In this document: positions 11,062 to 49,499 of the stretch, piece by piece
Numbering within the stretch: the first letter of the stretch is position 1
How the letters are laid out: each line of letters starts with the position of its first letter
From: Thermodesulfobacteriota bacterium
GTDB taxonomy: Bacteria > Desulfobacterota_D > UBA1144 > Nemesobacterales > Nemesobacteraceae
DNA: 64,000 nt
Reading direction: 5' to 3'
Assembly (NCBI GenBank): GCA_965204665.1
Contig: OZ242002.1
Location: 1,285,865-1,349,864, forward strand
The notes under the pieces: generated by a model
The model's input: only the letters and a program-made list of their open reading frames with translations
Told to the model about the DNA's origin: nothing
The model's database searches: none
Translations under genes and position numbers: made by a program

Positions 11062-12042
11062 ATGAGCCATAGTCATTTAAACGTCCCGTTGAAGTACTGG
11101 GAGTTGACGAAAGAGGTCCCGCCCCCTCCGATAGAGCGGGATATAAAGTCGTGGATCATAGCGAATCCGTCGGATCCGCTGTGGGACATAGATGTGCTGC
11201 CGTTGACGTATACGGACAGCAGGTGGTCGGCGTTCGTGGTGAGGTGCGACGAGGCGACGAGGAGTCGTCTGTGCCCGAATCCTCCGTTGGAGGTGTGGGA
11301 CGGGGAGAATGCCGATCTGGTGGAGTTCTGGTATGTGGATCATAAGAACACGATGCTGGGTCCGTATCTCGAGTTCGGAGTGACGATATCGGCGACATAC
11401 AAGGATCCTCAGGGCAATGTGTGGAAGGCGGGGTACTATCCGTATATGTATCTGACGGGTGATGCGCCGGTGGATGCTGGCAGGGTGCTTGGATTTCCGA
11501 AGAAGATGTCGTACATCAGATGTACGGTGCACGGCGGGGAGAAGGGGACGGACTTTTTCGGATTTGCGATGAGTCGTAACGGGTATCTGATGCACAGTGC
11601 GACGGGTCAGTTCGACGACAAGCAGGTTACGCCGCCGTTTTTCTACGGGAAGACGGATTGGGGCAAGTTCAACATGAAGGTTATAACGAGGCCCGACGTA
11701 TCGAGTTCGGAGTGGCAGTTGACGTATCTGCCGTCGGCGCTGCCGCCGCCGTTCGACACGATGATACAGGGGCACAGGTTCAAGATAAAGCCCGAGCACA
11801 CGAGGACTGCGTCGGGGGATGCGGTGAACTGGTTCATGCAGGCTACGCCGTTCGACAACATGGGGGCCGAGTTGAAGATACAGGAGGTTACGGGATTGAT
11901 ATCGTTCGTGTTCGATCTTGTGATACCGCCTGCGCAGGTGCTGTGGACGGAGACGTATGAGAGGCCGGCCAGTTACAGGGGTTATGCGACGCCGTACAAG
12001 TACGGGTTGAGGCAGCAGTTCCCGATAAGTCAGGGGTCATAA
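11062..12042 (+). CDS. acetoacetate decarboxylase (ADC) family protein, paralogue 1
   Basis: Shares the ADC signature with Clostridium ADC (VVPEP-like region, GNVWKAGYYPYMYLTGD, GFPKK). The Schiff-base lysine position is conserved. Confidence 0.75.
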   Translation: MSHSHLNVPLKYWELTKEVPPPPIERDIKSWIIANPSDPLWDIDVLPLTYTDSRWSAFVVRCDEATRSRLCPNPPLEVWDGENADLVEFWYVDHKNTMLGPYLEFGVTISATYKDPQGNVWKAGYYPYMYLTGDAPVDAGRVLGFPKKMSYIRCTVHGGEKGTDFFGFAMSRNGYLMHSATGQFDDKQVTPPFFYGKTDWGKFNMKVITRPDVSSSEWQLTYLPSALPPPFDTMIQGHRFKIKPEHTRTASGDAVNWFMQATPFDNMGAELKIQEVTGLISFVFDLVIPPAQVLWTETYERPASYRGYATPYKYGLRQQFPISQGS

Positions 12043-12074: not shown

Positions 12075-13046
12075 ATGGGATTACAAGCGAATGAGTACAG
12101 TTATCCGTGGTTGGACGAGGGAGAGGTGCCGCCGCTGCCGTTGGACAGGGACAGGATACACATAATAAGTCAGGGAGTGGCGGATCCCGTGTTCGACTAC
12201 GACATCGTACCGTTGACGTATACGGAGAGCAGATGGATGGCCTATGTGATAAGGGCTGACATCAATGCGATGAAGGCGGTGGTGCCGGAGCCGATAGAGG
12301 TTACGGATGACGTGATAGAGTTCTGGTACGTGATACATAAGAACACTATGCTGGGACCGTACATGGAGATGGGAGTGACGTTTTCCGCTACAGTGGATTC
12401 GGGGGACGGGCAGATATACAAGGCGGGGTACTATCCGTATATGTATCTGTCGAACGATTCGCCGATATTCGCGGGTAAGGAGCCGTTCGGGTTTCCGAAG
12501 AAGGCTGCGTACATAGCGGGATTCGAGCACGGAACCAACAACAATTATTTCAATCATCTGATGGAGCGCAGGGGATACATACTGCATACGGCGAACGGGC
12601 GTTATTCGGACAAGCCTTTGTCCGCGAGGCCGACGTTTTACGGCAAGACGGACTGGGGCAGGATGAATTACAGGATAACGACGAGGCCCGACGTATCGAA
12701 CAGCATCCACGAGGTGACGTATCTTCCGTCGGATCTTCCGCCGGGATTCGGGACGGGTCACAGGTTCCAGTTGAATCCCGAGAGTGTGAGGACGGCGGTG
12801 GGGGAGGATGTGCGTTCGTGGTATATGTCTGGGACGCCGTTCGACTATATGGGAGGTCAGATACCTGCGACGGAAGTTGTAGGGCTGATAAGTTTTACAT
12901 TCAATCTGATAATACCGCCTGCGTTGACGATCTGGAGCAGGACGGTGGAGAGGAGTACGGACGACATGAGTCATGTTGTGTATTCCACGCCGTTCGAGTA
13001 TACGATGCGTCACAGGTTCCTGCTGCCGCAGTACAGCCAGGGATAA
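12075..13046 (+). CDS. acetoacetate decarboxylase (ADC) family protein, paralogue 2
   Basis: AMKAVVPEPIEV, YKAGYYPYMYLSND and GFPKKAAY motifs; about 45-50% identical to paralogue 1; RBS AGGAGG. Confidence 0.75.
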   Translation: MGLQANEYSYPWLDEGEVPPLPLDRDRIHIISQGVADPVFDYDIVPLTYTESRWMAYVIRADINAMKAVVPEPIEVTDDVIEFWYVIHKNTMLGPYMEMGVTFSATVDSGDGQIYKAGYYPYMYLSNDSPIFAGKEPFGFPKKAAYIAGFEHGTNNNYFNHLMERRGYILHTANGRYSDKPLSARPTFYGKTDWGRMNYRITTRPDVSNSIHEVTYLPSDLPPGFGTGHRFQLNPESVRTAVGEDVRSWYMSGTPFDYMGGQIPATEVVGLISFTFNLIIPPALTIWSRTVERSTDDMSHVVYSTPFEYTMRHRFLLPQYSQG

Positions 13047-25716: not shown

Positions 25717-25894
25717 TTCGGTCAAGGCGTGGATGACGTTTTCACAGCCGGATGTCCTTTTCGGGTTTGCCCGATTGACTGAACCGGCTGCAGCATCCGA
25801 GTCCCTGCGTGGTTCCGACATGTATCCATCCCGAGTCAAGGTGGACGGTGCCCGCGCAGGTCGGAATCTCGACAAGTGTTTCTATCGGCACTGG
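25717..25894 (+). repeat. copy 1 of the TTCGGTCAAGGCGTG repeat family (non-coding)
   Basis: Aligned by eye to the copies at 46492, 49310(-) and 41235(-). Shared blocks: GGATGTCCTTTTCGG and GGTTCC...ATGTATCCA.CCCGAG...TCGGAATCTCGACAA. Confidence 0.6.
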
Positions 25895-26010
25895 TGTGAT
25901 TTCCGCAGGGCAAATGAGACATTGCGCTTACGGGAATACGGTATTCTCCATCACAATATAAAAGGTATCGGGGAAATTCATCGGTCGGACTTCGTATCTA
26001 CTCACTGCAG

Positions 26011-26125: not shown

Positions 26126-27658
26126 TCAGTCTACAAACTCATACTTGTTCTGACTGATGATGTTTCCCGCCTTGTCGTTGTCCGCCGTGCTGCCTATCTG
26201 AACAACTTCAGTTCCTCCCACGGAAATCTTGCCGGCAGCGTTGGTCAACGCTCCGGCCCCAGCCGCGAAGCCCCTGAACTGAATCCTGTCGTCCGCCAAT
26301 GTGAAGTCCGTAATGATGTCCACACCGCCGTCGGCTTTTCTGATGAGGAAAGTGTCGTTTCCGGCTCCGCCGGTAAGGTTGTCGGCGCCTTCTTCACCTA
26401 TGAGAACATCATTCCCTGCTCCTCCGTCAAGAGTGTCGGTACCTTTACCGCCTCTGAGGGTGTCGTTCCCTCCTCTGCCTTCAAGAGTGTCGTCGGCGTT
26501 TCCTCCTCTGAGAGTATTCGCCTTGCCGTCCCCTTTAAAAGTAACGGCGGTAGTACGAGGACCGAACCTTGACACAGCAGTAAGGTTCTCGAAGTTGGAA
26601 GCAAAACTGGGAGGATTCGCAAGATCGAAGGTACTAAGCGCGTTACTGCCCCATGAAGCGGCAGTACTCCCACCAGCAATGAGATATGTACCTCCATACA
26701 CTACAAGGGTATCATTTCCCGGCCCGCCATCTGTTGTACCTGCTCCGGCGTTCCCGGTGGGTGGAGAGGGGTCGATTGTGTCATCTCCGGCTCCACCCTT
26801 TATAGTGTCGATACCGAACCATCCATCTATAATATTGTCTTTATCGTCTCCGATAATAGTGTCGTTACCGATACCGCCGACAACATCCTCAATACCCGTA
26901 ATTTTATCACTCCCATATGTAGCATGCGTCGAAGAGCCTAGGCTGAGGTCTACAGTATGACCCGCTGTAATGAAACTTGTGGGTGGGCGACTGGTGGTCC
27001 CGGGTGCAAGAGGAGGAGCAAAAACCAGCCTGTCATGGTCTCCGGCACCACCGATAAACGTATCGTCACCCGGGTCGGTAATGAGAAATTCATCATTACC
27101 GGGTCCGCCGTAGATCGTATCATTACCGGGTCCGCCGTAGAAAAACCCCCTCCCCTTTCCACCGTAGAGAGTGTCATTTCCGTCTCCACCCCGGAAATGG
27201 TCGTTCCCGTCTTCGCCGTAGAGAGTGTCATCGCCGTTCTCACCGTAGAGCAGATCATTACCTCCTCCGCCGTAAACAGTATCATCACCATCACCGGCTT
27301 TAATGTCGTTGATGTATTGATTTCCGCAGATGACATCGTCATCCGCAGTTCCCGTGACATCATCGGAGACACCGGGAAGCGCATTTATACCGTTGCTGAC
27401 GTCGCATCTGGGATCACCGAAGGACTTTCCCGGATCTCCCTGCAGACCCGTCGCTCCCGGTGCTCCCGAGTCTCCTTTATCTCCCTTATCCCCCTTATCT
27501 CCTTTCGCCCCGTCTTTCCCTGCCGGTCCCGCAGGCCCCATGTCTCCTTCACAGGCGGCAAAGAAAACCGCTCCGCCGAGCAGAAACAACAAAACTAAGA
27601 AATTACGTAATTTCATAATACAACCTCCTTTGATAAGATGTTTTTTATTAATAAGCAA
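26126..27658 (-). CDS. lipoprotein with collagen-like Gly-X-Y repeats and RTX (hemolysin-type calcium-binding) nonapeptide repeats, paralogue 1
   Basis: Signal peptide plus lipobox (LFAAC). GPAGPAGKDGAKGDKGDKGDKGD collagen-like region. Many GGxGNDxxY repeats. Confidence 0.8.
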   Translation of the reverse strand: MLINKKHLIKGGCIMKLRNFLVLLFLLGGAVFFAACEGDMGPAGPAGKDGAKGDKGDKGDKGDSGAPGATGLQGDPGKSFGDPRCDVSNGINALPGVSDDVTGTADDDVICGNQYINDIKAGDGDDTVYGGGGNDLLYGENGDDTLYGEDGNDHFRGGDGNDTLYGGKGRGFFYGGPGNDTIYGGPGNDEFLITDPGDDTFIGGAGDHDRLVFAPPLAPGTTSRPPTSFITAGHTVDLSLGSSTHATYGSDKITGIEDVVGGIGNDTIIGDDKDNIIDGWFGIDTIKGGAGDDTIDPSPPTGNAGAGTTDGGPGNDTLVVYGGTYLIAGGSTAASWGSNALSTFDLANPPSFASNFENLTAVSRFGPRTTAVTFKGDGKANTLRGGNADDTLEGRGGNDTLRGGKGTDTLDGGAGNDVLIGEEGADNLTGGAGNDTFLIRKADGGVDIITDFTLADDRIQFRGFAAGAGALTNAAGKISVGGTEVVQIGSTADNDKAGNIISQNKYEFVD

Positions 27659-27692
27659 AGTCTTGTCATAAGACTTTTATTTTATGGATTTG

Positions 27693-27720
27693 ATTCTACC
27701 CCCCCCCTAACTAAGTCAAG
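27693..27720 (-). promoter_or_regulatory. sigma70-like promoter with a G9 tract in the spacer (TTGACT-tagtta-G9-TAGAAT); candidate phase-variable switch
   Basis: Read directly on the minus strand. Spacer is 15 nt, so G11 would give the optimal 17 nt. ATG lies 35 nt downstream with an AGGAGG RBS. Confidence 0.55.
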
Positions 27721-27879
27721 GACAGATGCCTGACCACATATCTGACCGAGTTGAGAATCAGACTTGATTTCGGATGTTCTTGAGCGTGGAGGTGAGTTTT
27801 CGGCCGGACGGTCAAAACAACTCGCCCATTAAACTTCAAAAACAGGTGGATTTTTCTGGAAGTTCAGGAGACCCGTAAT

Positions 27880-41099: not shown

Positions 41100-41235
41100 C
41101 CGGGAGCTCGGCCGCTGTGACAGGCACGAACAATTCGGCAAGTCCGAAAAGGACATCCGTTCGCTTCCGCTTCGGATGAACCGGAAGCGAACCGTCAACG
41201 GGGCTGAAAACGACCCGGTCCGTCATCAATTACCG
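41100..41235 (-). repeat. partial copy 4 of the TTCGGTCAAGGCGTG repeat family
   Basis: Contains TCCGAAAAGGACATCCG, flanking similarity to copies 1 and 3, and the GTTTTCAGC block. Confidence 0.45.
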
Positions 41236-41243
41236 GTCCGCTA

Positions 41244-42242
41244 CTAGCCTTGCGGGGCAGCGAAGGCCGTCAGATGAACGACGGTATCGTCGGCCACAAG
41301 TGCGCCGCCGACCAGTTTCTCTCCTGTTATACCCACATCACGGCCGAGCCCGACGGCAGGATGGTCGTCGAATGAACCGTCGAGGATACGGTCAAGGAAT
41401 GCCTGGGAATCATATTCCAGTGATTTCTCCTGGTCTCGGGGGCTGTTTCTCAACGCGTCGATAGCGTAACTCCGCACCAACTTCGGAAGTAGTGCGGCGA
41501 ATGTTTCAGGCTGGTCGAAAAGGTCCAGTCCGCAGCATCTGTTCTTCACAACGAAAACAGCCCCGACTTGGGTTGGAACGGCCTGCACCGATTCGACATA
41601 GTCATTGAGGGTTTTCCTGTGTCTGTCGAACATCGCGTGCATAGCCCCGGTTGGAGATGACGCGTCCAGATTCCTCATCTCTTCAGCCAGTGAATCCCAG
41701 ACTCGCCCTTGGTTGGACCGACGGTGCCCGCGGCGCATTGATTCTCGAACATCGGCCAGGTTTTCCGACCGACCCCGCACGGTTGAGATGTAGTCAGTTG
41801 TGTCGAAATCGGTTTTTCTGCGAGACTGTGCCTGTCGCCGCTCCTCCGAGCCGCCGTGGTCATCCATGCTGGAGACGGTCTCTCTTCTATAATGCCACCG
41901 GCCGGATTCTACGCATGAGACGGGAATTTTTGTTTCTTGGTTTGCCGCAATGAGCATGGTGAGGTTTGCAATTCGGTTCTGCTTGGCGCCGGCAAGTTCC
42001 TCTCCATCAACTATAAGTACCGGTAAATCGGCGTAGTTCTTAACGACAAGTTCCGGCACGCTACCGCTCTCGGACACTTCCTCAATTTTGACGAGATTTT
42101 TCTGCAGACCGTCACCCAAGAGCAGGTAGCGAAGAGAACTGGTATGTTTCGAAGTCAGCGGAAAGACGGACAACTCACCGTATGTTGTCGGTTCCTCTGA
42201 CTCCAGACTGGAAATCGTGGTTTTGATTTGATCCAATTTCAC
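41244..42242 (-). CDS. hypothetical protein encoded with the vWA protein (unknown family)
   Basis: 332-aa ORF with very high GC codon usage and its own AT-rich upstream gap; no family recognised. Confidence 0.5.
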   Translation of the reverse strand: MKLDQIKTTISSLESEEPTTYGELSVFPLTSKHTSSLRYLLLGDGLQKNLVKIEEVSESGSVPELVVKNYADLPVLIVDGEELAGAKQNRIANLTMLIAANQETKIPVSCVESGRWHYRRETVSSMDDHGGSEERRQAQSRRKTDFDTTDYISTVRGRSENLADVRESMRRGHRRSNQGRVWDSLAEEMRNLDASSPTGAMHAMFDRHRKTLNDYVESVQAVPTQVGAVFVVKNRCCGLDLFDQPETFAALLPKLVRSYAIDALRNSPRDQEKSLEYDSQAFLDRILDGSFDDHPAVGLGRDVGITGEKLVGGALVADDTVVHLTAFAAPQG

Positions 42243-42494
42243 TTCCTCCTTAAATGTGTAATTTTTACTTGTATTGGTTTTACTTCTGATCTTTATGTCT
42301 GACCGTATAGAGCATCAGACATGACAGCTAATCGCGATTGGAAATGCCTGAATGGATTGATCAGGTCGGGTCCATCCGGACATTTCATAACTGCTCAACT
42401 ATCGCCAGGCGGACTGCGCAAGAATGTATCCGATTCCCTTTGCTGCAATCCCGTTCGGTCCTTAGGAACTCCAGGGCATCTTAACAGCCGGTCG

Positions 42495-43823
42495 TCATTC
42501 ACCGCGTTCCATTCGAGTACTCCAGCTGTCTCTCATACCCCTGTGGTCTGCCCGACTGTTCCTGCTCTGATACGACTGATTCACCATCTCCTTGTGCATC
42601 CGCGGTGAAAACCTGCGGTCGACACGGCGCGCGAGCATCTCGAGTTCACGCACCATATCATTCCCCCGGTCAAGACCCCTCGCGTAACGACGGAAATAAT
42701 GCAGCTCCCGCTGAACATATTCCTTCGCCTCGGAATATGCTCCGTCCCGATTCATCCGAGACGCAGTGAGAACGACATCCGCGCTCCACATCCTCGCCAC
42801 TACTTCGGCAGTCTTCATGTCGCGCGGCTGATAGTTGTTGACCCTGCTGTCGGCGGCAACCAGACCGACCGTCTTCGGACCGGCCTCAAGAATGCGTCGA
42901 TCCCCGACGGAACTCGCTCTTGTCGACAGTTCAAACTCCAACACGTCTTTGGCCTTTCCGCCCGGACAGGTTACTTTGAAGACGGCGACCCGCTCTATGC
43001 CGTTCTGAATCGGCCCGAGCCGGACGAGAACGGAGTCGTCGCGAAGAACGGAGTTCTCTCTGCCCAGCGCATCGACCCGTACACCCGCAGGAAATGTCAG
43101 AGTCACCTCCGCATCCTCGACCACCGTGTTGTAGATGTCTCCGAGTTCACCCAGAAGAACGGTTGAAATTTCACCGGCGTGCTCCACATCGTGCAGACGC
43201 CCTCCTCCGTTCTCGGCCATGCCCCTCAACAGATGCTCGTCGTATCCGGCACCTATACCGAGAGCGGAAGTGAATACTCCCCGCTTTCTGAATTCACCGG
43301 CATGCTCTCTGAGTTCCGCAGGGTCCGTTATACCTGCATTGGCGTGGCCGTCGCTCAGTATGATCACGCGCGGCGTCATGCGGGCATCCTCTTCCGCCAC
43401 CCGAGCCGTGCACTCGACCCCGGCAAACCACCCCTCGGACAGTGCGGTCGAACCTCGGGTTCGCAGCCGTAAAATCTCTTCGCGTATCCGGTCCGCATTT
43501 TCCCCGCTCGCCTGCACCGCGTCGAGATGTATCCGAACATCGGATGCGAAAGAGACCAGGGTGATCCGGTCCCTGTCCGTCAGATGCCCGGTCAGACCGA
43601 CCGCCGCTTCCTTGGCCGCTTCAAGCTTTCCACCGCCCATCGACCCGCTCGCATCCATCACAAGAGCTATGTTGACGGGCATCTCCTCTCCGGAAACGCC
43701 GTCTTCCCCGCTCCGCGCCTCGAGTCTCGCAACGAGATAACGCACGGAATCTCCACCCTGCCAGTAGAATTGCCGGTCGAAGCCGGCTTCCGCAGTAAAA
43801 TTCACATCAGTCATTCTTTCCAC
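42495..43823 (-). CDS. von Willebrand factor type A (vWA) domain protein
   Basis: MIDAS motif VMDASGSMGG...LSDGHANAG, plus a ~250-aa C-terminal region. Confidence 0.8.
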   Translation of the reverse strand: MERMTDVNFTAEAGFDRQFYWQGGDSVRYLVARLEARSGEDGVSGEEMPVNIALVMDASGSMGGGKLEAAKEAAVGLTGHLTDRDRITLVSFASDVRIHLDAVQASGENADRIREEILRLRTRGSTALSEGWFAGVECTARVAEEDARMTPRVIILSDGHANAGITDPAELREHAGEFRKRGVFTSALGIGAGYDEHLLRGMAENGGGRLHDVEHAGEISTVLLGELGDIYNTVVEDAEVTLTFPAGVRVDALGRENSVLRDDSVLVRLGPIQNGIERVAVFKVTCPGGKAKDVLEFELSTRASSVGDRRILEAGPKTVGLVAADSRVNNYQPRDMKTAEVVARMWSADVVLTASRMNRDGAYSEAKEYVQRELHYFRRYARGLDRGNDMVRELEMLARRVDRRFSPRMHKEMVNQSYQSRNSRADHRGMRDSWSTRMERGE

Positions 43824-44499
43824 CTCCTGTTAGAATGGCGCGGAACTGGTCCGCAAGTTGTTCAAAAAGAATCCGCTCCCGAGGCTCGAGTTCCCCTCGA
43901 ACAGAGATCTCGAAGGCGGATGTTACGGATATTCTCGTCCAGACTTCACCCCGCGAGTGCCGGGGCGCAGAGTCTCCCAGTATCTTCTCCAACTGAAAAA
44001 TCAACCATTCAATGCTCGTCAATTCGTTCCCGCCCGGTTCGGACCGCCCGGTTCTGCGGAACTTTATCGACCTCCGGTTCAGACCCCGTTCCGAAAACGG
44101 TGCTTCCGATACATCTCCGTACGGCTCCCGCCGGGTGGTGGAATCCGTTGCGGACCGGGTCGACCCGGTAGAAGTGCCTCCCGCCCGAATCCTGCTCAGA
44201 TAATCGCGGGCAGACCCGGGCGGCGCTGAAGTCAGACCGATTCCGGTCGCCCACTCCCTGATCTGTTCTTCGGTCGCCCTGATGAACAACTGCCCGATTT
44301 CGGACAACGACAACCCCCGATGTTTTTTGAGCGCCCTGACCGCCGCCGCGCGGTCCGCGTTGCTGCTCGGATAGCGCGCTCCCCGGCCGGGCCTGAAGGG
44401 CGGAGCCAGCAGTCCCTCGCTGATCCACGAACGCAGAGTACGGACCTCGACGCCGGTACGTCTGCTGAGCTCTTCGATTGTGAGTCGATCATCATTCAT
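43807..44499 (-). CDS. MerR-family transcriptional regulator with a low-complexity C-terminal half
   Basis: N-terminal HTH LTIEELSRRTGVEVRTLRSWISEGLL; overlaps the vWA gene start by 17 nt. Confidence 0.7.
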   Translation of the reverse strand: MNDDRLTIEELSRRTGVEVRTLRSWISEGLLAPPFRPGRGARYPSSNADRAAAVRALKKHRGLSLSEIGQLFIRATEEQIREWATGIGLTSAPPGSARDYLSRIRAGGTSTGSTRSATDSTTRREPYGDVSEAPFSERGLNRRSIKFRRTGRSEPGGNELTSIEWLIFQLEKILGDSAPRHSRGEVWTRISVTSAFEISVRGELEPRERILFEQLADQFRAILTGGGKND

Positions 44500-44968
44500 G
44501 GTAATAACAGTATAACGCCGGAATCCGACATGTCAAGATGTTATTTTGTTTGAGGCAACCAGGCTTTCTAAAAAATGTAGAGATATCAAGAAGTTTGGGA
44601 AAGGGTAAATTTTTTTACCTCAAGATTCCCACCGAGAAACTCCGTCCTTAAAACCTGCAAAATCAGCTGGTTCTGGCCAAACACCGCAAATTCAGACTTC
44701 CTGACCCGAGATTTAAATGAACCGTTTTTATGGGAGCGGCAAAACTACCCTGGGAGTTCATATACAAGCCGAAGATTGGTCCTCGGATAGATCATGCGGA
44801 TTTGGTTGATTCCAGTAAATTGGAAGAAACAATTGCTGTTGTTAGTCAACCGTAGAATTAGGCGTCAAATTAAGCGTTGTGAAAGGACCACGAAATTGAT
44901 TCATACCATCATTTTGTGAATGGGCGTTGTATAATGGGCGAACCCAAACCTGAATCGTAAGCGTTCGG

Positions 44969-46491
44969 GAGTTATTGTCAAATCTGGTGTTTGCGTGATC
45001 AAGCGGCGCTCCAGTTATTTGAATTCTCCTCTTCGTTTTCCTGATTTATATCCTCAATTCCATCTTTGGATTTCACACCTGTTATCACTTTTCCTACGAA
45101 GTCGAATCCGTTGAGCCTTCGCCAGTTGTTCTCCGCACACATCCCCAACTTGAAGATCATGTGCAGCATTCCCTCGGAATTCAGACACCCTTCAGCTCTC
45201 CTGGTTCTGTGCCGTATGGTTCCGAAGGAGGACTCTATCGGATTCGTCGTCCTTATGCTTCTCCAGTGCCGAGCTGGAAAATCGTAAAAGGCCGGAAGTT
45301 GCTCACGGTCCCTCTCCAAACATCCGGCAGCCTTCGGATATTTGTCCCCGTACATCCTTATGAACAGATCAAAAGCCTTCCGCGCTTCCTCCTTCGTCTC
45401 AGCCTGCCGGATGTCATGCAGGCACCTCTTCGCTTTTCTCCGGGAAGTCTTCGGAAGACAGTTCAGCACATTCGCCGTCTTATGTACCCGGCAACGCTGC
45501 TCCCGCGTCTCCCCGTAAACTTCAGGAAGCGCAGACCAAAACCCTGGAGCTCCGTCACCGATTGCAAGCTTCGGCTCTTCCATCCCGCGAGCCTTCAGGT
45601 CCGACAACACTTCGCGCCGACTCTGCTTTGATTCCCCGACTCCGTTTTCAATGGAAAGGAAGTGCTTCTTCCCGCTCTGATCCACCCCTATCACCACCAG
45701 CGTGCACAACCCGGGATCATCTCCCCGCACCTTGCTGTGTATACCGTCCACCCGGATGTAAGCCCGGTCGTGGCCGCTGAGGTCTCTCCTGCGCCGTTTA
45801 TCGTATTCCTCAGCCCACTTGCGCTTGAGCCTGGATACCGTAGCCGCGGAAAAACCCCGAGCCTCGGGGCCTATAAGGGCTTCCAATGCGGACTTTATGT
45901 TCCCCGTGGACAATCCCTGCAGGTAAAGCCAAGACAGAGACGATTCAAGTTTCGCAGCCTTGCGTACGTACGGAGGCACAATAGCCGAACGGAACACGGC
46001 AGGCTGACCGTCTCTTGATCTCACTTCGGGTATGCGTACCGATACAGGACCTATACCCGTCTGCACATCCCGTTCCGGGTGGTATCCGTTACGAATCACC
46101 GCGGCCCTGCCGTCTTCGAGTTGTCTGTCGTTCCGGGACTGCAGGTATGCTTCCGACTCCATTTCGATTGCGGAAACCAAGAGAAGCCGAGCTGACTTCC
46201 TCAACAGATCACTGAGGTCATCGCAACACTGTTCAGGACTGCCGAATCCGGAGTCCGGTCGTCTCTGAGTGCGGGACCCGTCAATTACTGTTTGAGAGTT
46301 CTTCCCGAAGAACTTTGTAAAAATGTTTTCCAATGAATCAAAAAGCTCTTTTTGACCTTCACGGTCAAAAACTTTATATTTTCTGCCCATAGCGGCGTAT
46401 CCTCCTGTAATTGGAATTTTGGTGAATTCAAATTAACCGGATACGCCGCTTTTTTTCAAAACCTGCTGAACACCAGATTAGAGCATAACTC
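44969..46491 (-). mobile_element. intact IS256-family insertion sequence (~1.52 kb) with imperfect terminal IRs and a 9-bp target-site duplication
   Basis: IRs GAGTTATTGTCAAATCTGGTGTT and GAGTTATGCTCTAATCTGGTGTT. Direct repeat AGCGTTCGG sits immediately outside both ends (about 44960-44968 and 46492-46500). Confidence 0.75.
44999..46390 (-). CDS. IS256-family (Mutator-type) transposase
   Basis: 463 aa; DDE region with CRVHKTANVLNCLPK and NPIESSFGTIRHRTRRAEG motifs. Confidence 0.85.
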   Translation of the reverse strand: MGRKYKVFDREGQKELFDSLENIFTKFFGKNSQTVIDGSRTQRRPDSGFGSPEQCCDDLSDLLRKSARLLLVSAIEMESEAYLQSRNDRQLEDGRAAVIRNGYHPERDVQTGIGPVSVRIPEVRSRDGQPAVFRSAIVPPYVRKAAKLESSLSWLYLQGLSTGNIKSALEALIGPEARGFSAATVSRLKRKWAEEYDKRRRRDLSGHDRAYIRVDGIHSKVRGDDPGLCTLVVIGVDQSGKKHFLSIENGVGESKQSRREVLSDLKARGMEEPKLAIGDGAPGFWSALPEVYGETREQRCRVHKTANVLNCLPKTSRRKAKRCLHDIRQAETKEEARKAFDLFIRMYGDKYPKAAGCLERDREQLPAFYDFPARHWRSIRTTNPIESSFGTIRHRTRRAEGCLNSEGMLHMIFKLGMCAENNWRRLNGFDFVGKVITGVKSKDGIEDINQENEEENSNNWSAA

Positions 46492-46548
46492 AGCGTTCGG
46501 TCAAGGCGTGGTGAATGAACATTTTCAGCGGTTGAGGATCTGCACCTC
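46492..46548 (+). repeat. copy 2 (5' part) of the TTCGGTCAAGGCGTG repeat, interrupted at its first bases by the IS256 insertion
   Basis: AGCGTTCGGTCAAGGCGTGGTGAATGAACATTTTCAGCGGTTGAGGA aligns to copies 1 and 3. Confidence 0.55.
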
Positions 46549-46706: not shown

Positions 46707-48005
46707 TCAGTCTGTAAATTTATACAGGGTCGGTGTCTCACGGATTGCTTTTGCTGTGGCGTCATCCTGCACATCAACTACATTGTCTGATCCTATGGTG
46801 ATCGTGCGACCCGACCCTGTCAACGTAGACCCTTTCGGAAAACCTCTGAACTCAATTATATCTTTCTGCGATGCGTTGAAGTCCGTAATAGTATCCTTGG
46901 AGCTTCTGGTCACGTGTCTGATTAGAAAGGTGTCGGCACCGGCACCACCTGTAAGATTATCAGCACCGTACTGTCCATCGAGCAGATCATTTCCGGCTTT
47001 TCCGTCAATCGTATCATTTCCATTTACCCCGATGAGATGATTTCCCAGGGCATCTCCGCTGATGGTATCGTTGCCGTGTCCAGCATAAATGTTCTCGATA
47101 CCTTCAAATGTAATCACTCCCCAACCATGAGCAGTGCCGTCAAAAGACCCCGTGGAAAGATCAATGGTTATAGCTGTCCCCACATTTCCGAAAATGGGCA
47201 ACAAAAATTGCTTCATTCTCGGCACTACACTACCTACACCGACAATTCCACCTAGGACCAGAAAATCACCATTACTATTATTACTAACAGCAGTCCCTGT
47301 CGGGGCGCCGCCGTTAAAGCTGTCATTGCCTGGTTCATTGATGTAAAAAATATCCATCCCGGCTCCGCCGTTGAGCGTATCATTGCCTTCGTCGCCATAG
47401 AGTGCGTCGTTTCCCGCATCGCCGTTGATCGTATCATCGCCGCCTGCTCCCCGGATGTAATCAGTTCCGTCTCCGCCGTAGATGGTGTTGGCGCCGGCGG
47501 TGGCCCAGATTGTATCATCTCCGTCTCCACCGTAGATGATGTCGTCGGTAGTTCCCGAGAGGTTGCCGTCAAGATGAGCATCAATGTGGTCATCTCCGTC
47601 TTCACCATATATCGTATCCGTGCCGTCACCGCCGCCTATCTTGTCGTTTCCGGCACCGGCGTAAACAGTATCATCGCCGTCTCCGGCATTAATCGTGTTT
47701 TTGTACTGATTTCCGCATATGACATCGTCGTCATCAGTCCCCGTGATATCATTGGAGATACCGGGCAGCGCATTTATACCGTTGCTCACGTCGCATCTGG
47801 GGTCACCGAAGGACTTTCCCTGACCCCCTTGCTGGCCCGGGTTTCCTTGATCTCCTTTTGCCCCATCTTTTCCTGGTGTTCCCGGATCTCCTTTCGGACC
47901 TTGAGGACCTGCCGGTCCAGCCGGACCCGTATCACCTTCACAGGCAGCAAAGAAAACCGCTCCGCTGAACAGAAACAATAAAACTAAGAAATTACGTAAC
48001 TTCAT
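46707..48005 (-). CDS. lipoprotein with collagen-like and RTX calcium-binding repeats, paralogue 2
   Basis: Same signal peptide plus lipobox, GPAGPAGPQGPKGDPGTPGKDGAKGD region, and RTX nonapeptides. Confidence 0.8.
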   Translation of the reverse strand: MKLRNFLVLLFLFSGAVFFAACEGDTGPAGPAGPQGPKGDPGTPGKDGAKGDQGNPGQQGGQGKSFGDPRCDVSNGINALPGISNDITGTDDDDVICGNQYKNTINAGDGDDTVYAGAGNDKIGGGDGTDTIYGEDGDDHIDAHLDGNLSGTTDDIIYGGDGDDTIWATAGANTIYGGDGTDYIRGAGGDDTINGDAGNDALYGDEGNDTLNGGAGMDIFYINEPGNDSFNGGAPTGTAVSNNSNGDFLVLGGIVGVGSVVPRMKQFLLPIFGNVGTAITIDLSTGSFDGTAHGWGVITFEGIENIYAGHGNDTISGDALGNHLIGVNGNDTIDGKAGNDLLDGQYGADNLTGGAGADTFLIRHVTRSSKDTITDFNASQKDIIEFRGFPKGSTLTGSGRTITIGSDNVVDVQDDATAKAIRETPTLYKFTD

Positions 48006-48047
48006 AACACAACCTCCTTCGACAATGTAGAATCTTTCATAACTTTG

Positions 48048-48074
48048 ATTCTACCCCCCCCCTTACTAAGTCAA
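48048..48074 (-). promoter_or_regulatory. promoter with a G9 spacer tract (TTGACT-tagtaa-G9-TAGAAT), second copy
   Basis: Same architecture and 15-nt spacer as the promoter at 27693-27720. Confidence 0.55.
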
Positions 48075-48149
48075 GGGATACAAGGGCAGGATCAATCAGA
48101 CCCGTCATAGGCGAGGTTGCGGCTGTTCAAGCGTACGGGAGTTTTCGGG

Positions 48150-48900
48150 TTCATGTACTGTAAGAGTGTTACTTCGACAAACGCACCGGCCGCCGGGTTG
48201 GACAACGGCTCGGAGACCAGGGTTTGGATTTTTCACCGGGAACCCTGATGGAGAGTATGAAGCGGATGCTGCTCCTGTTCAAGCCGATCTATGACGCGAT
48301 TCTCGCCCGTTCCAGCGCATATAAATGAAGATGGCCGGAGAGTCTGCCGGCAAAGTGATACTGTGCTTCTGCCGGGCGCATGTAGGAAGATATTTCATAG
48401 ATTGCGCGGCGAGTCATCCGCATCTTGAACCGTGGCGTGAAAAATATCCTGATCTCATCGGAGGTATTTATCGACTGTACAGAGAGAGGCTCAAGTACTA
48501 TGTTGCGGGGTGCAGGTCCTCGGACTTTGAACGGGTGCAGAGCAAACTGGAAGATGCGGTCGGCGGTCTGTTCACCGAAGCCGAGAGTGAGTTGGAAGGA
48601 CCGGCAGAAGATGAAGTCGCCGCGCCCGCTGATTCAGCATCACGAGGGGGCTGAGCATGTTCATTGATCAACCTCGGGTGCCTATGGACAACAACACGGC
48701 GGAGAGGTCTCTGCGCAGGGCTGTCATAGGACGCAACTGAGCTTCGGTTCAGACAGCATGGAAGGAGCTGAAATAACTGCAGTGATCCGCTCGGTGCTGG
48801 AACGGTCAGGGATAACGGTATTGATGTGCTTCGATGGTTGGAGGCATGGTTGACCGCATGTGCGGAAAACGGTCGGAAACCTCCGGATGGTCCGGTACCA
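48150..48900 (+). pseudogene. degraded IS66-family transposase (TnpC) fragment, frameshifted
   Basis: LCFCRAHVGRYFIDC (IS66 CWAHxRR motif), IGGIYRLYRERLKYY, and in another frame FIDQPRVPMDNNTAERSLRRAVIGR. Confidence 0.55.
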
Positions 48901-49098
48901 TGGTTGTCGTGGTTGAGGAACAGGGAGCACCTTCATCGGATGGACATCCCGAAAGCGGGAGCGGAATCTTCCGCTTGTCATGGACAACCCGAGATTTCTT
49001 GTTCTTCCATGGATACAAATACCCGACCTCGGGTCTCATATCCTCTCCGCTCGTCTGTCGGCGTCTGCCTGACGAGCGGAGTCGACGATACAACATAG

Positions 49099-49310
49099 CC
49101 GGTGCTGATGGAAACGTTTGTCGAGATTCCGACATAAAAGGGCACGGTCTACCGTGCCTCGGGGTGGATACATGCAGGAACCACCAAAGGACGCGGACGT
49201 TACGACCGGTACAGGAAATCCGAAAAGGACATCCGGCTGAAACCGCTTCGCAGGAACTGGAGACAAGTTCTCGACCGCTGAAAACGCTCATTCAACACGC
49301 CTTGACCGAA
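49099..49310 (-). repeat. copy 3 (most complete) of the TTCGGTCAAGGCGTG repeat family
   Basis: Reverse complement begins TTCGGTCAAGGCGTGTTGAATGAGCGTTTTCAGCGG and ends ...GTTTCCATCAGCACCGG. Internal hairpin GGCACGGtagaCCGTGCC. Confidence 0.6.
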
Positions 49311-49499
49311 TGGTTACGAGAGGGGAGGGGGAAATCAGATTCTGTAAAAACATCTCGGCTCTGATGTCTACGCTGAACAATGCGAAACCTCAGAATATCT
49401 TCACAGTCTCAACTGTCTCTGACTCTACTGCAGACCTAACTCTCCGTAGGTAGTAGAATGATAATTTGATGCAGTCACGTTATAAAGATTTTTGACGGT

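Follow-up and report, generated by a model that had tools for sequence, protein, structure and literature searches.

A MerR-like/ArnB-like vWA gene pair beside an ARPP-1 gene in a Thermodesulfobacteriota genome and its possible link to ADP-ribose processing

Analysis of a 64,000-nt stretch of contig OZ242002.1 (the window) from a Thermodesulfobacteriota bacterium revealed a trio of genes encoding a MerR-like regulator, a von Willebrand factor A (vWA) protein and a protein of 332 amino acids (aa). The open reading frame (ORF) listing placed them in the same orientation on the minus strand at 43807-44499 (230 aa), 42495-43823 (442 aa), and 41244-42242 (332 aa), at the coordinates of the original prediction, which was made from the sequence alone and proposed a GC-rich three-component module next to an IS256 element. 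The GC content was compared with that of 1-kb windows across the 64 kb (0.496 ± 0.032, mean and standard deviation [SD]). The MerR and vWA genes reach the maximum of the window (0.59 to 0.60, about +3.3 SD) and are compositionally foreign. Values for the third gene (0.544), purE (0.536), and the IS256 transposase gene (0.534) lie close together; the elevated GC content originally assigned to the whole trio relative to purE and the transposase thus holds for the MerR and vWA genes but not for the third gene. The AT-rich gap of about 250 bp described between the vWA gene and the third gene was also present (Table 1).

The 332-aa protein had been regarded as belonging to no recognizable family. 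Pfam analysis identified it from end to end as ARPP-1 (PF20208, also annotated DUF6569; E = 6.7e-91, 305 bits against a cutoff of 27, model positions 2 to 297 of 297). ARPP has been described as an uncharacterized protein in which one Cys and one Gln are absolutely conserved and for which a duplicated beta-meander core with an inserted barrel was proposed from a RoseTTAFold model (PMC9503650). The same authors listed ARPP as a variable accessory of predicted ADP-ribosylglycohydrolase (ARG)-centered systems against viral ADP-ribosylation, which also hold a repressor (Nudix-helix-turn-helix [HTH] or WYL), a phosphatase, and a "peptide-binding chaperone" such as vWA, and reported two-gene contexts of ARPP with HIRAN, WYL, or deacetylase genes (PMC9503650). 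MerR is not mentioned in the text of that paper, and no further description of ARPP was found in the searchable literature. Alignment of 28 ARPP sequences, including that of the window, revealed two invariant residues, C110 (PVSCVE) and Q88 (GAKQNR). An alternative TTG start codon at 42236, with the strong ribosome-binding site AAGGAGG upstream, yields the N terminus MDQIKT, as in homologues. The ARPPs of two Thermodesulfobacteriota (that of the window and P0002) share an insert of ~23 aa around aa 123 to 146, and both lack the basic C-terminal tail YAxYRQRRDSLRRRY of most other close homologues.

The Pfam VWA domain was located at aa 51 to 217 of the 442-aa ORF (E = 4e-17). Homologues begin with MTDV, which corresponds to the ATG at 43814 and a protein of 439 aa, and a 100%-identical database protein (P0121) agrees with this start. 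From the conserved start, the MerR and vWA genes overlap by 8 nt (ATGACTGA), as is typical of the family; the overlap itself had been predicted correctly, and the figure of 17 nt given for it resulted from the start chosen by the ORF caller. The MIDAS motif (DxSxS...T...D) is intact, as had been claimed, with D57, S59, S61, T126, and D158 invariant in 26 homologues. A confident AlphaFold2 model (pLDDT 90, pTM 0.86) predicted N-terminal strands that join a beta-sandwich (aa 233 to 324), the vWA domain (aa 50 to 232), and a four-helix bundle (aa 336 to 422). The C-terminal extension noted before is therefore present but measures about 210 rather than about 250 aa, and it is structured in the model as the beta-sandwich and the helical bundle. 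By combining a beta-sandwich, a vWA trunk, and a helical bundle at the C terminus in a single chain, the modeled protein has an ArnB-like/Sec23-24-core-like architecture. No signal peptide-like N terminus was detected, and the ArnB-like model is compact and of cytoplasmic type.

Alignment of the MerR-like protein with its homologues revealed three parts. The predicted MerR-type HTH is present in the N-terminal region (aa 1 to 105; MerR_1 at aa 7 to 71; PF13411, 56 bits, E = 3e-15; PF00376, 39 bits). What had been called a Ser/Thr/Arg-rich tail is a low-complexity, variable linker (about aa 105 to 160), after which comes a C-terminal module of ~65 aa that is strongly conserved (...IERLILQLE...WTRISVT...LSVRG...RERVLFEQLADQFRAIL). 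The alignment contains neither conserved Cys/His residues for metal sensing or an effector site nor the long coiled-coil typical of MerR. Scores against the NCBIfam equivalogs for MerR, SoxR, CadR, and ZntR were far under the cutoffs, and in PADLOC-DB v2 the protein matched mad1 weakly and at the level of the HTH only.

The promoter of the MerR-like gene ends ~10 nt before its ATG, which implies that the MerR-vWA mRNA would be nearly leaderless. In the ~30 closest loci the -10 box lies 8 to 10 nt before the MerR ATG, and each of these loci contains exactly one copy of a palindrome, always just upstream of MerR. The family consensus, AATGCGACAT-N-TTGAC-ATGTCGCATT (also written TTAATGCGACAT-CTTGAC-ATGTCGCATTAA), is centered on the -35 hexamer. 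The 16-nt spacer and the dyad on the -35 box differ from classical MerR activation, in which the dyad lies inside a spacer of 19 to 20 bp. Searches for a second MerR operator upstream of the third genes or in the vWA-ARPP gap of the window gave no match. DNA homology with the closest relative extends from the vWA stop codon to 48 nt upstream of the MerR ATG and thus covers exactly the MerR-vWA unit.

Scanning with an alignment of the vWA family, with one genome per species, yielded 192 relatives, for 80 of which loci were retrieved. Most belong to the Rhodobacterales/Paracoccaceae and Acetobacteraceae, and others to the Obscuribacterales, Planctomycetota, Gemmatimonadota, and a metagenome-assembled genome (MAG) of Acidobacteria; the closest is encoded by a Thermodesulfobacteriota MAG (69% identity). 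A separate look-up revealed a MerR-vWA locus in an actinomycete (Parafrankia/Frankia BMG5.11). A profile of the upstream protein identified a full-length MerR-like gene, with HTH and C-terminal module, directly upstream of vWA in 82 of 85 loci; among the three exceptions, two are contigs or hits that are truncated. In most loci the two genes overlap by up to 14 nt or are separated by a few tens of nucleotides. The MerR and vWA genes form an obligate, self-contained two-gene core. When the neighbors of the 80 vWA loci were clustered, MerR was the only family to exceed about 12 loci. No kinase, FHA, PP2C, MoxR or STAND NTPase, or TerD gene was found in the conserved core, and no FHA or kinase family among the recurrent neighbors. 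The surroundings often contain genes for tyrosine integrases and WYL regulators, and genes of McrBC/GmrSD or other restriction types. Carriage on plasmids is rare (one close vWA match and one distant ARPP match).

The gene that follows vWA varies, so that the constant three-gene module originally proposed was not recovered. The genes located immediately after vWA on the same strand (n = 54) were tallied by Pfam, and ARG was recounted with a profile and corrected ORF starts. ARG was the commonest identifiable family in the Pfam tally (5/54), ahead of short-chain dehydrogenases (3/54) and the inositol-monophosphatase family (Inositol_P; 2/54); most of the downstream genes carry no ADP-ribose annotation. 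AIG2-like proteins were found after vWA in four loci, with an HD-like motif in the C-terminal half that was recognized by eye and not confirmed by Pfam, and neighbor clustering added a Zn-ribbon protein family without Pfam match in six loci. In the recount, ARG was positioned directly 3' of vWA in seven loci, overlapping it by 4 nt in four, one gene away in another (L006), and divergent from MerR in a ninth (L054). Tight linkage was thus observed in 9 of the 80 loci (9 to 10 sister loci contain ARG overall), which by our own estimate clearly exceeds what chance would give for a gene with 0 to 3 copies per genome.

Two sets of third genes were noted in more detail. In the four loci with the AIG2-like protein, the gene for this 312- to 325-aa protein, with an AIG2/GGCT-like N-terminal and the HD-like C-terminal half, overlaps the vWA stop by 4 nt; the protein is recurrent in Acetobacteraceae and has no full Pfam assignment. 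In the closest relative (L004/L008), MerR-vWA is followed by a 57-aa gene and by genes for a GrpE-like protein of 286 aa, an Hsp70-like protein, a TerB-domain protein, and an M48-like peptidase. This set is a different cargo of the MerR-vWA core, of chaperone type.

A reverse scan of metagenomes with the ARPP alignment yielded 80 loci, 68 of them with enough flanking sequence. In 13 of these 68 loci, ARPP has beside it a MerR-like gene that shares the full-length architecture of the vWA-linked one. In the ARPP clade closest to the window (53 to 65% identity), this gene is divergent and located 107 to 125 nt upstream of ARPP in all sampled genomes. Other immediate neighbors are WYL genes (14 loci), sigma54/RtcR-like activators (7 loci), ARG (2 to 3 loci), and TY-Chap3 (2 loci). 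The intergenic regions between MerR-like genes and ARPP contain multiple ACTGTCAA/ACTGTTGAC repeats at roughly helical spacing, overlapping a -35-like TTGAC (seen in eight loci). These repeats, which differ from the vWA-type palindrome, probably serve the ARPP-type MerR-like regulators as an operator array. A 345-aa gene by the MerR-like/ARPP pair of one of these loci (L002) was considered as a diverged vWA, which was ruled out on testing.

Three metagenome contigs encode a fusion of ARPP, vWA, and PARG, comprising the same 1,029-aa protein in L110 and L111 and a protein of 965 aa in L112. The fusion consists of ARPP-1 (aa 1 to 309), vWA with its C-terminal extension (aa 324 to 726), and a microbial-type PARG/macro domain (aa 775 to 916), and its vWA part aligns to positions 6 to 420 of the 440 positions of the vWA profile. 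In all three contigs a MerR-like gene precedes the fusion gene co-directionally. In L110 (7423-11999), the MerR-like gene and the 1,029-aa fusion are followed by a second, stand-alone microbial-type PARG. Upstream of MerR and the fusion, this contig also contains a PLD-like gene with two PLDc/HKD motifs. The fusions are the strongest evidence that ARPP and the vWA family may act together on ADP-ribose, and, taken together, the ARG partners, the fusions, and the MerR-like neighbors of ARPP tie the MerR, vWA, and ARPP families to ADP-ribose processing.

On this basis, we consider it about an even chance that the locus contains an autoregulated MerR-like/ArnB-like vWA core whose preferred cargo is ADP-ribose-processing enzymes and which here has ARPP-1 as its output. 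Because the slot after vWA prefers ADP-ribose-removing enzymes, namely, ARG and the HD-like and Inositol_P proteins as candidate phosphatases, and ARPP-vWA-PARG fusions exist, an inducible anti-ADP-ribosylation function appears most likely. The identity of ARPP-1 and the published link of ARG and phosphatases with vWA "chaperones" (PMC9503650) also favor this reading. In this reading, the locus places two allied modules side by side, the MerR-vWA bicistron and ARPP-1. We infer repression, a MerR-vWA complex, an ADP-ribose signal, ARPP activity, and coexpression in this genome along the following lines. The MerR-like protein would bind the palindrome over its own -35 box and keep the operon low. 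The vWA protein, translationally coupled to MerR, would act as protein partner and signal receiver, by analogy to ArnA-ArnB. Its MIDAS and its beta-sandwich/helical surfaces may bind a modified or foreign protein or the linker or C-terminal domain of MerR, so switching the repressor. The output would be ARPP-1, for which a role as Cys/Gln enzyme or binder of ADP-ribose or ribose moieties is predicted; read-through of the MerR promoter or a promoter of its own would drive its expression. The trio would thus form an inducible system that detects ADP-ribosylation, e.g., by phage ADP-ribosyltransferases, and reverses or processes it. A wider proposal covers the ~190 species-level loci in Alphaproteobacteria, Thermodesulfobacteriota, Melainabacteria (Obscuribacterales), Planctomycetota, Gemmatimonadota, and Actinomycetota: MerR-vWA would be a widely mobile, autoregulated two-protein sensor of ADP-ribosylation that switches on interchangeable outputs reversing it (ARG, PARG, ARPP, or phosphatases), with the window holding the version with ARPP output. 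The ADP-ribosylation sensed could be that of cell proteins, possibly of MerR's own Ser/Thr/Arg-rich linker. We put this proposal forward tentatively and regard it as rather unlikely.

Cytoplasmic vWA proteins in mobile, conflict-type settings are a feature of the TerY-P/vWA ternary and NTP-dependent conflict systems surveyed by the Aravind group. The window protein resembles these in being a cytoplasmic vWA with intact MIDAS in a mobile, conflict-type neighborhood. The MerR-vWA core, however, contains no PP2C, kinase, MoxR/STAND NTPase, or TerD, and TerB and Hsp70 genes were found in one relative only. The analogy to NTP-dependent and Ter-type systems drawn originally could not be upheld, since the module lacks NTPase, kinase, and phosphatase genes. 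PADLOC, PHROGs, and NCBIfam scans of the trio proteins gave nothing specific, with no PADLOC-DB v2 match for ARPP or vWA.

The ARG-centered anti-ADP-ribosylation systems predicted by Iyer, Burroughs, Anantharaman, and Aravind (2022, Viruses 14:1977; PMC9503650, section 3.8) share with the locus a one-component repressor, a vWA "peptide-binding chaperone," an ARPP accessory, and a variable mobile architecture. Furthermore, sister MerR-vWA loci carry ARG directly downstream, fusion relatives carry PARG, and both accessories, vWA and ARPP, are present and adjacent in the window. The defining core of these systems, ARG (PF03747) without a linked ADP-ribosyltransferase and with a coupled phosphatase (R-P, calcineurin-like, HD, or HAD), is absent from the window; the trio has no HD-like or Inositol_P gene, such genes being confined to sister loci. 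The regulator is MerR-like rather than Nudix-HTH or WYL, and the part that does not vary here is MerR-vWA itself, which has a conserved operator of its own. The ARPP contexts given in the ARG paper (ARG systems, HIRAN, WYL, and deacetylase) include neither MerR nor a vWA fusion (PMC9503650). The trio is probably a variant of the predicted ARG-centered systems that lacks ARG and has a new regulator class. The WYL-ARPP two-gene neighborhoods (PMC9503650) likewise combine ARPP with one transcription factor of the one-component type, either divergent or adjacent; we recovered WYL next to ARPP in 14 of ~80 loci and MerR-like genes in 13. They differ in the regulator family, and the window has no divergent regulator of the ARPP type and instead a vWA-type MerR operon upstream.

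Sulfolobus ArnB binds ArnA through its beta-sandwich and C-terminal domains and serves as a modification-driven conformational switch that does not itself bind DNA (PMC12852372). Comparison with this ArnA-ArnB pair of archaellum regulation (Protein Data Bank entry 8s05; PMC12852372, PMC6509490) revealed several differences. The vWA partner here binds DNA and is MerR-like, in place of a Zn-finger/FHA protein; linked kinases or PP2A are lacking, and a Zn-ribbon protein follows vWA in the six loci mentioned only. Identity to ArnB is only ~17%, and the hosts are bacterial, the loci mobile, and the outputs other.

The ARPP-1, vWA, and MerR families and the concept of predicted ARG systems were already known. 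The obligate MerR/ArnB-like vWA core with its operator, the MerR-ARPP pairing, and the ARPP-vWA-PARG fusions appear to be undescribed in the searchable literature. Host countermeasures to phage ADP-ribosyltransferases have been predicted and not demonstrated, and the locus gives a compact, testable handle on them: a two-gene core with a defined promoter/operator, a confidently modeled ArnB-like candidate sensor, and fusions that point to partners. MerR-like proteins are added as a third regulator class to ARPP biology, and the predicted fold places a regulatory architecture of the archaeal/eukaryotic Sec23-24-core type in mobile bacterial modules. The gene order of the window is not the conserved one, which calls for caution.

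Several observations weigh against the ADP-ribose reading of the trio. ARPP was found within 10 kb of vWA in none of the 80 species-representative loci, and a distance of 1 Mb separates ARPP from MerR-vWA in the genome of the closest relative. The GC content of ARPP and MerR-vWA differs (0.544 versus 0.59 to 0.60), the 240-bp junction matches neither locus of the relative, and no MerR operator precedes ARPP. The window copy of the palindrome, AAAATAACATCTTGACATGTCGGATT, has a degenerate left arm with 5 mismatches in 25 positions. Neither ARG nor PARG (searched by profile) nor a phosphatase of the ARG-system type was found in the 64-kb window. The ARG-linked sister loci are concentrated in Acetobacteraceae, so that independent events are fewer than loci. 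No informative structural relative of ARPP was found, and the functions of ARPP, vWA, and MerR in this locus are themselves predictions. The absent adjacency in other loci, the separate sites in the relative, the GC difference, and the junction without homology or operator are what would be expected if MerR-vWA and ARPP were independent neighbors joined accidentally by IS66-like/DruA rearrangement in a recombination-prone island, with no cooperation here. ARPP may then have lost its own divergent MerR-like regulator, which is normal in the closest ARPP clade and missing here, and may be constitutive, silent, or decaying. ARPP also abuts the IS66-like/DruA pair in the relative, and remnants of this pair lie 6 kb away in the window. 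Cooperation of the families is nevertheless documented by the natural combinations of MerR with ARPP-vWA-PARG fusions, and in other loci the slot after vWA holds partner genes. Both modules have been kept in both related genomes at ~70% identity with their invariant residues intact, and the genes are co-oriented with no terminator predicted between them. An accidental neighborhood is a reasonable, if somewhat doubtful, possibility.

MerR-vWA could also be a general ArnAB-like switch of stress or proteostasis that responds to phosphorylation, metal, or protein damage, has no link to ADP-ribose or phages, and carries third genes as diverse cargo. The ArnB-like fold is consistent with this, since ArnB works in a phosphorylation-driven regulatory switch, as are the GrpE-like, Hsp70-like, TerB, and M48 peptidase genes of the closest relative, the lack of an ADP-ribose annotation in most downstream genes, and the missing PADLOC matches. 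We consider this improbable, given the tight ARG linkage in 9 of 80 loci, the PARG fusions, the conserved core free of kinase, FHA, and PP2C genes, the frequent location among integrases, restriction, and McrBC/GmrSD-type genes, and a MerR-like protein that lacks conserved cysteines with which to sense metals. The Pfam MerR_1 and VWA matches taken alone, together with JGI names such as "Ca-activated chloride channel homolog," would suggest a classical metal- or drug-responsive MerR activator that controls a secreted or adhesive vWA protein. The cytoplasmic-type model without a signal peptide-like N terminus, the missing effector site and coiled-coil, the palindrome on the -35 box of a promoter with a 16-nt spacer, and the low NCBIfam scores make this explanation very improbable.

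The history of the arrangement was traced by comparison with the closest relative genome. Its ARPP (70% identity, L001) stands alone beside an IS66-like/DruA-domain pair and an RTX/collagen gene, next to ppk-CHAD, and its MerR-vWA (70 to 71% identity) is found in L004/L008. In the relative the mobile pair is intact, with a 670-aa IS66-like and a 297-aa DruA-domain protein between the RTX gene and ARPP (L001 4781-7683). In the window, ppk-CHAD is positioned at 16.3 to 18.4 kb (76 to 84% aa identity to the relative), a DruA fragment (25733-25898) and an RTX paralogue at 25.7 to 27.7 kb, ARPP at 41.2 kb, and the IS66-like/DruA remnants at 48.3 to 49.4 kb. The fragment at 41126-41185 seems to mark the rearranged IS66-like/DruA context in which ARPP travels, and the comparison suggests that ARPP and RTX genes are moved around by the IS66-like/DruA pair as a mobile unit. 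In the ARPP region, homology to the relative stops 13 nt upstream of the ARPP start. The adjacency of ARPP and MerR-vWA is probably secondary because the two lie 1 Mb apart in the relative, their GC content differs, the junction is nonhomologous, and no operator precedes ARPP. The trio proteins are ~70% identical to those of the relative, and the flanking housekeeping proteins are 76 to 84% identical. Both modules were probably acquired before the two lineages separated, and thus not recently, since the divergence of the trio is only slightly above that of the housekeeping proteins.

The conflict- and mobile-type character of the gene families and the foreign composition of MerR-vWA accord with the horizontal origin originally proposed; IS256 was not the carrier. 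The predicted IS256 neighbor was verified by a Transposase_mut match, 23-nt terminal inverted repeats (44969-44991 and 46469-46491), and an intact 9-bp target duplication, AGCGTTCGG, at 44960-44968 and 46492-46500. Because this duplication is intact, the element was inserted later and simply. No second IS256 copy was found in the window, and a composite transposon as the vehicle of the trio was rejected for a single copy with its own target duplication.

Table 1. Features of the MerR-vWA/ARPP-1 locus and its surroundings in the window
Feature	Coordinates	Strand	Remarks
ARPP-1 family protein, 332 aa	41244..42242	-	Pfam PF20208
Gap between vWA and ARPP, 252 bp, GC 0.46	42243..42494	-	Homologous to neither locus of the closest relative
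ArnB-like vWA protein, 439 aa from the conserved ATG; ORF reaches GTG at 43823	42495..43814	-	
MerR-like regulator, 230 aa	43807..44499	-	MerR_1 E = 3e-15; upstream partner of vWA in 82/85 loci
Sigma70-type promoter, TTGACA-16-TATACT (11/12)	44509..44536	-	Position and sequence kept across loci
Operator-like palindrome centered on the -35 box	44522..44547	-	One copy per locus in the ~30 closest loci
IS256-family insertion sequence	44969..46491	-	Transposase at 44999-46390; later simple insertion, outside the module
DruA/DUF4338-like C-terminal fragment	41126..41185	+	Direct repeat of 49202-49261, 73% identity
Degenerate IS66-like transposase and DruA-like remnants	48260..49364	+	Homologous to genes flanking ARPP in the closest relative

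The 252-bp gap contains an 8-12-8 palindrome, ATGTCTGA...TCAGACAT, at 42295-42322. The gap was inspected for what might be left of a divergent MerR gene of the ARPP type; its sole ORF (42321-42608, plus strand) is unlike the aligned MerR-like N termini by eye, no search having been run. Two similarities were discarded: that of a 9-mer in the spacer of the MerR promoter to one in the gap (ATGTCgGAT/ATGTCtGAT), which is at chance level by our own estimate, and GCTGTCAT, shared with ARPP-type intergenic regions, which is not long enough to carry weight. Scanning the island for Rfam families and tRNAs gave no matches. Paralogous RTX/collagen-repeat genes are located at 26126-27658 and 46707-48005 (minus strand), with 78 to 83% nucleotide identity over their 5' parts. 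Both are preceded by the same element of ~42 nt with a C9 homopolymer (G9 on the coding strand) at 27680-27721 and 48035-48076, a candidate slipped-strand phase-variation switch. Elsewhere in the window, tandem paralogues of ~325 aa at 11062-12042 and 12075-13046 share segments that are 72 to 78% identical.

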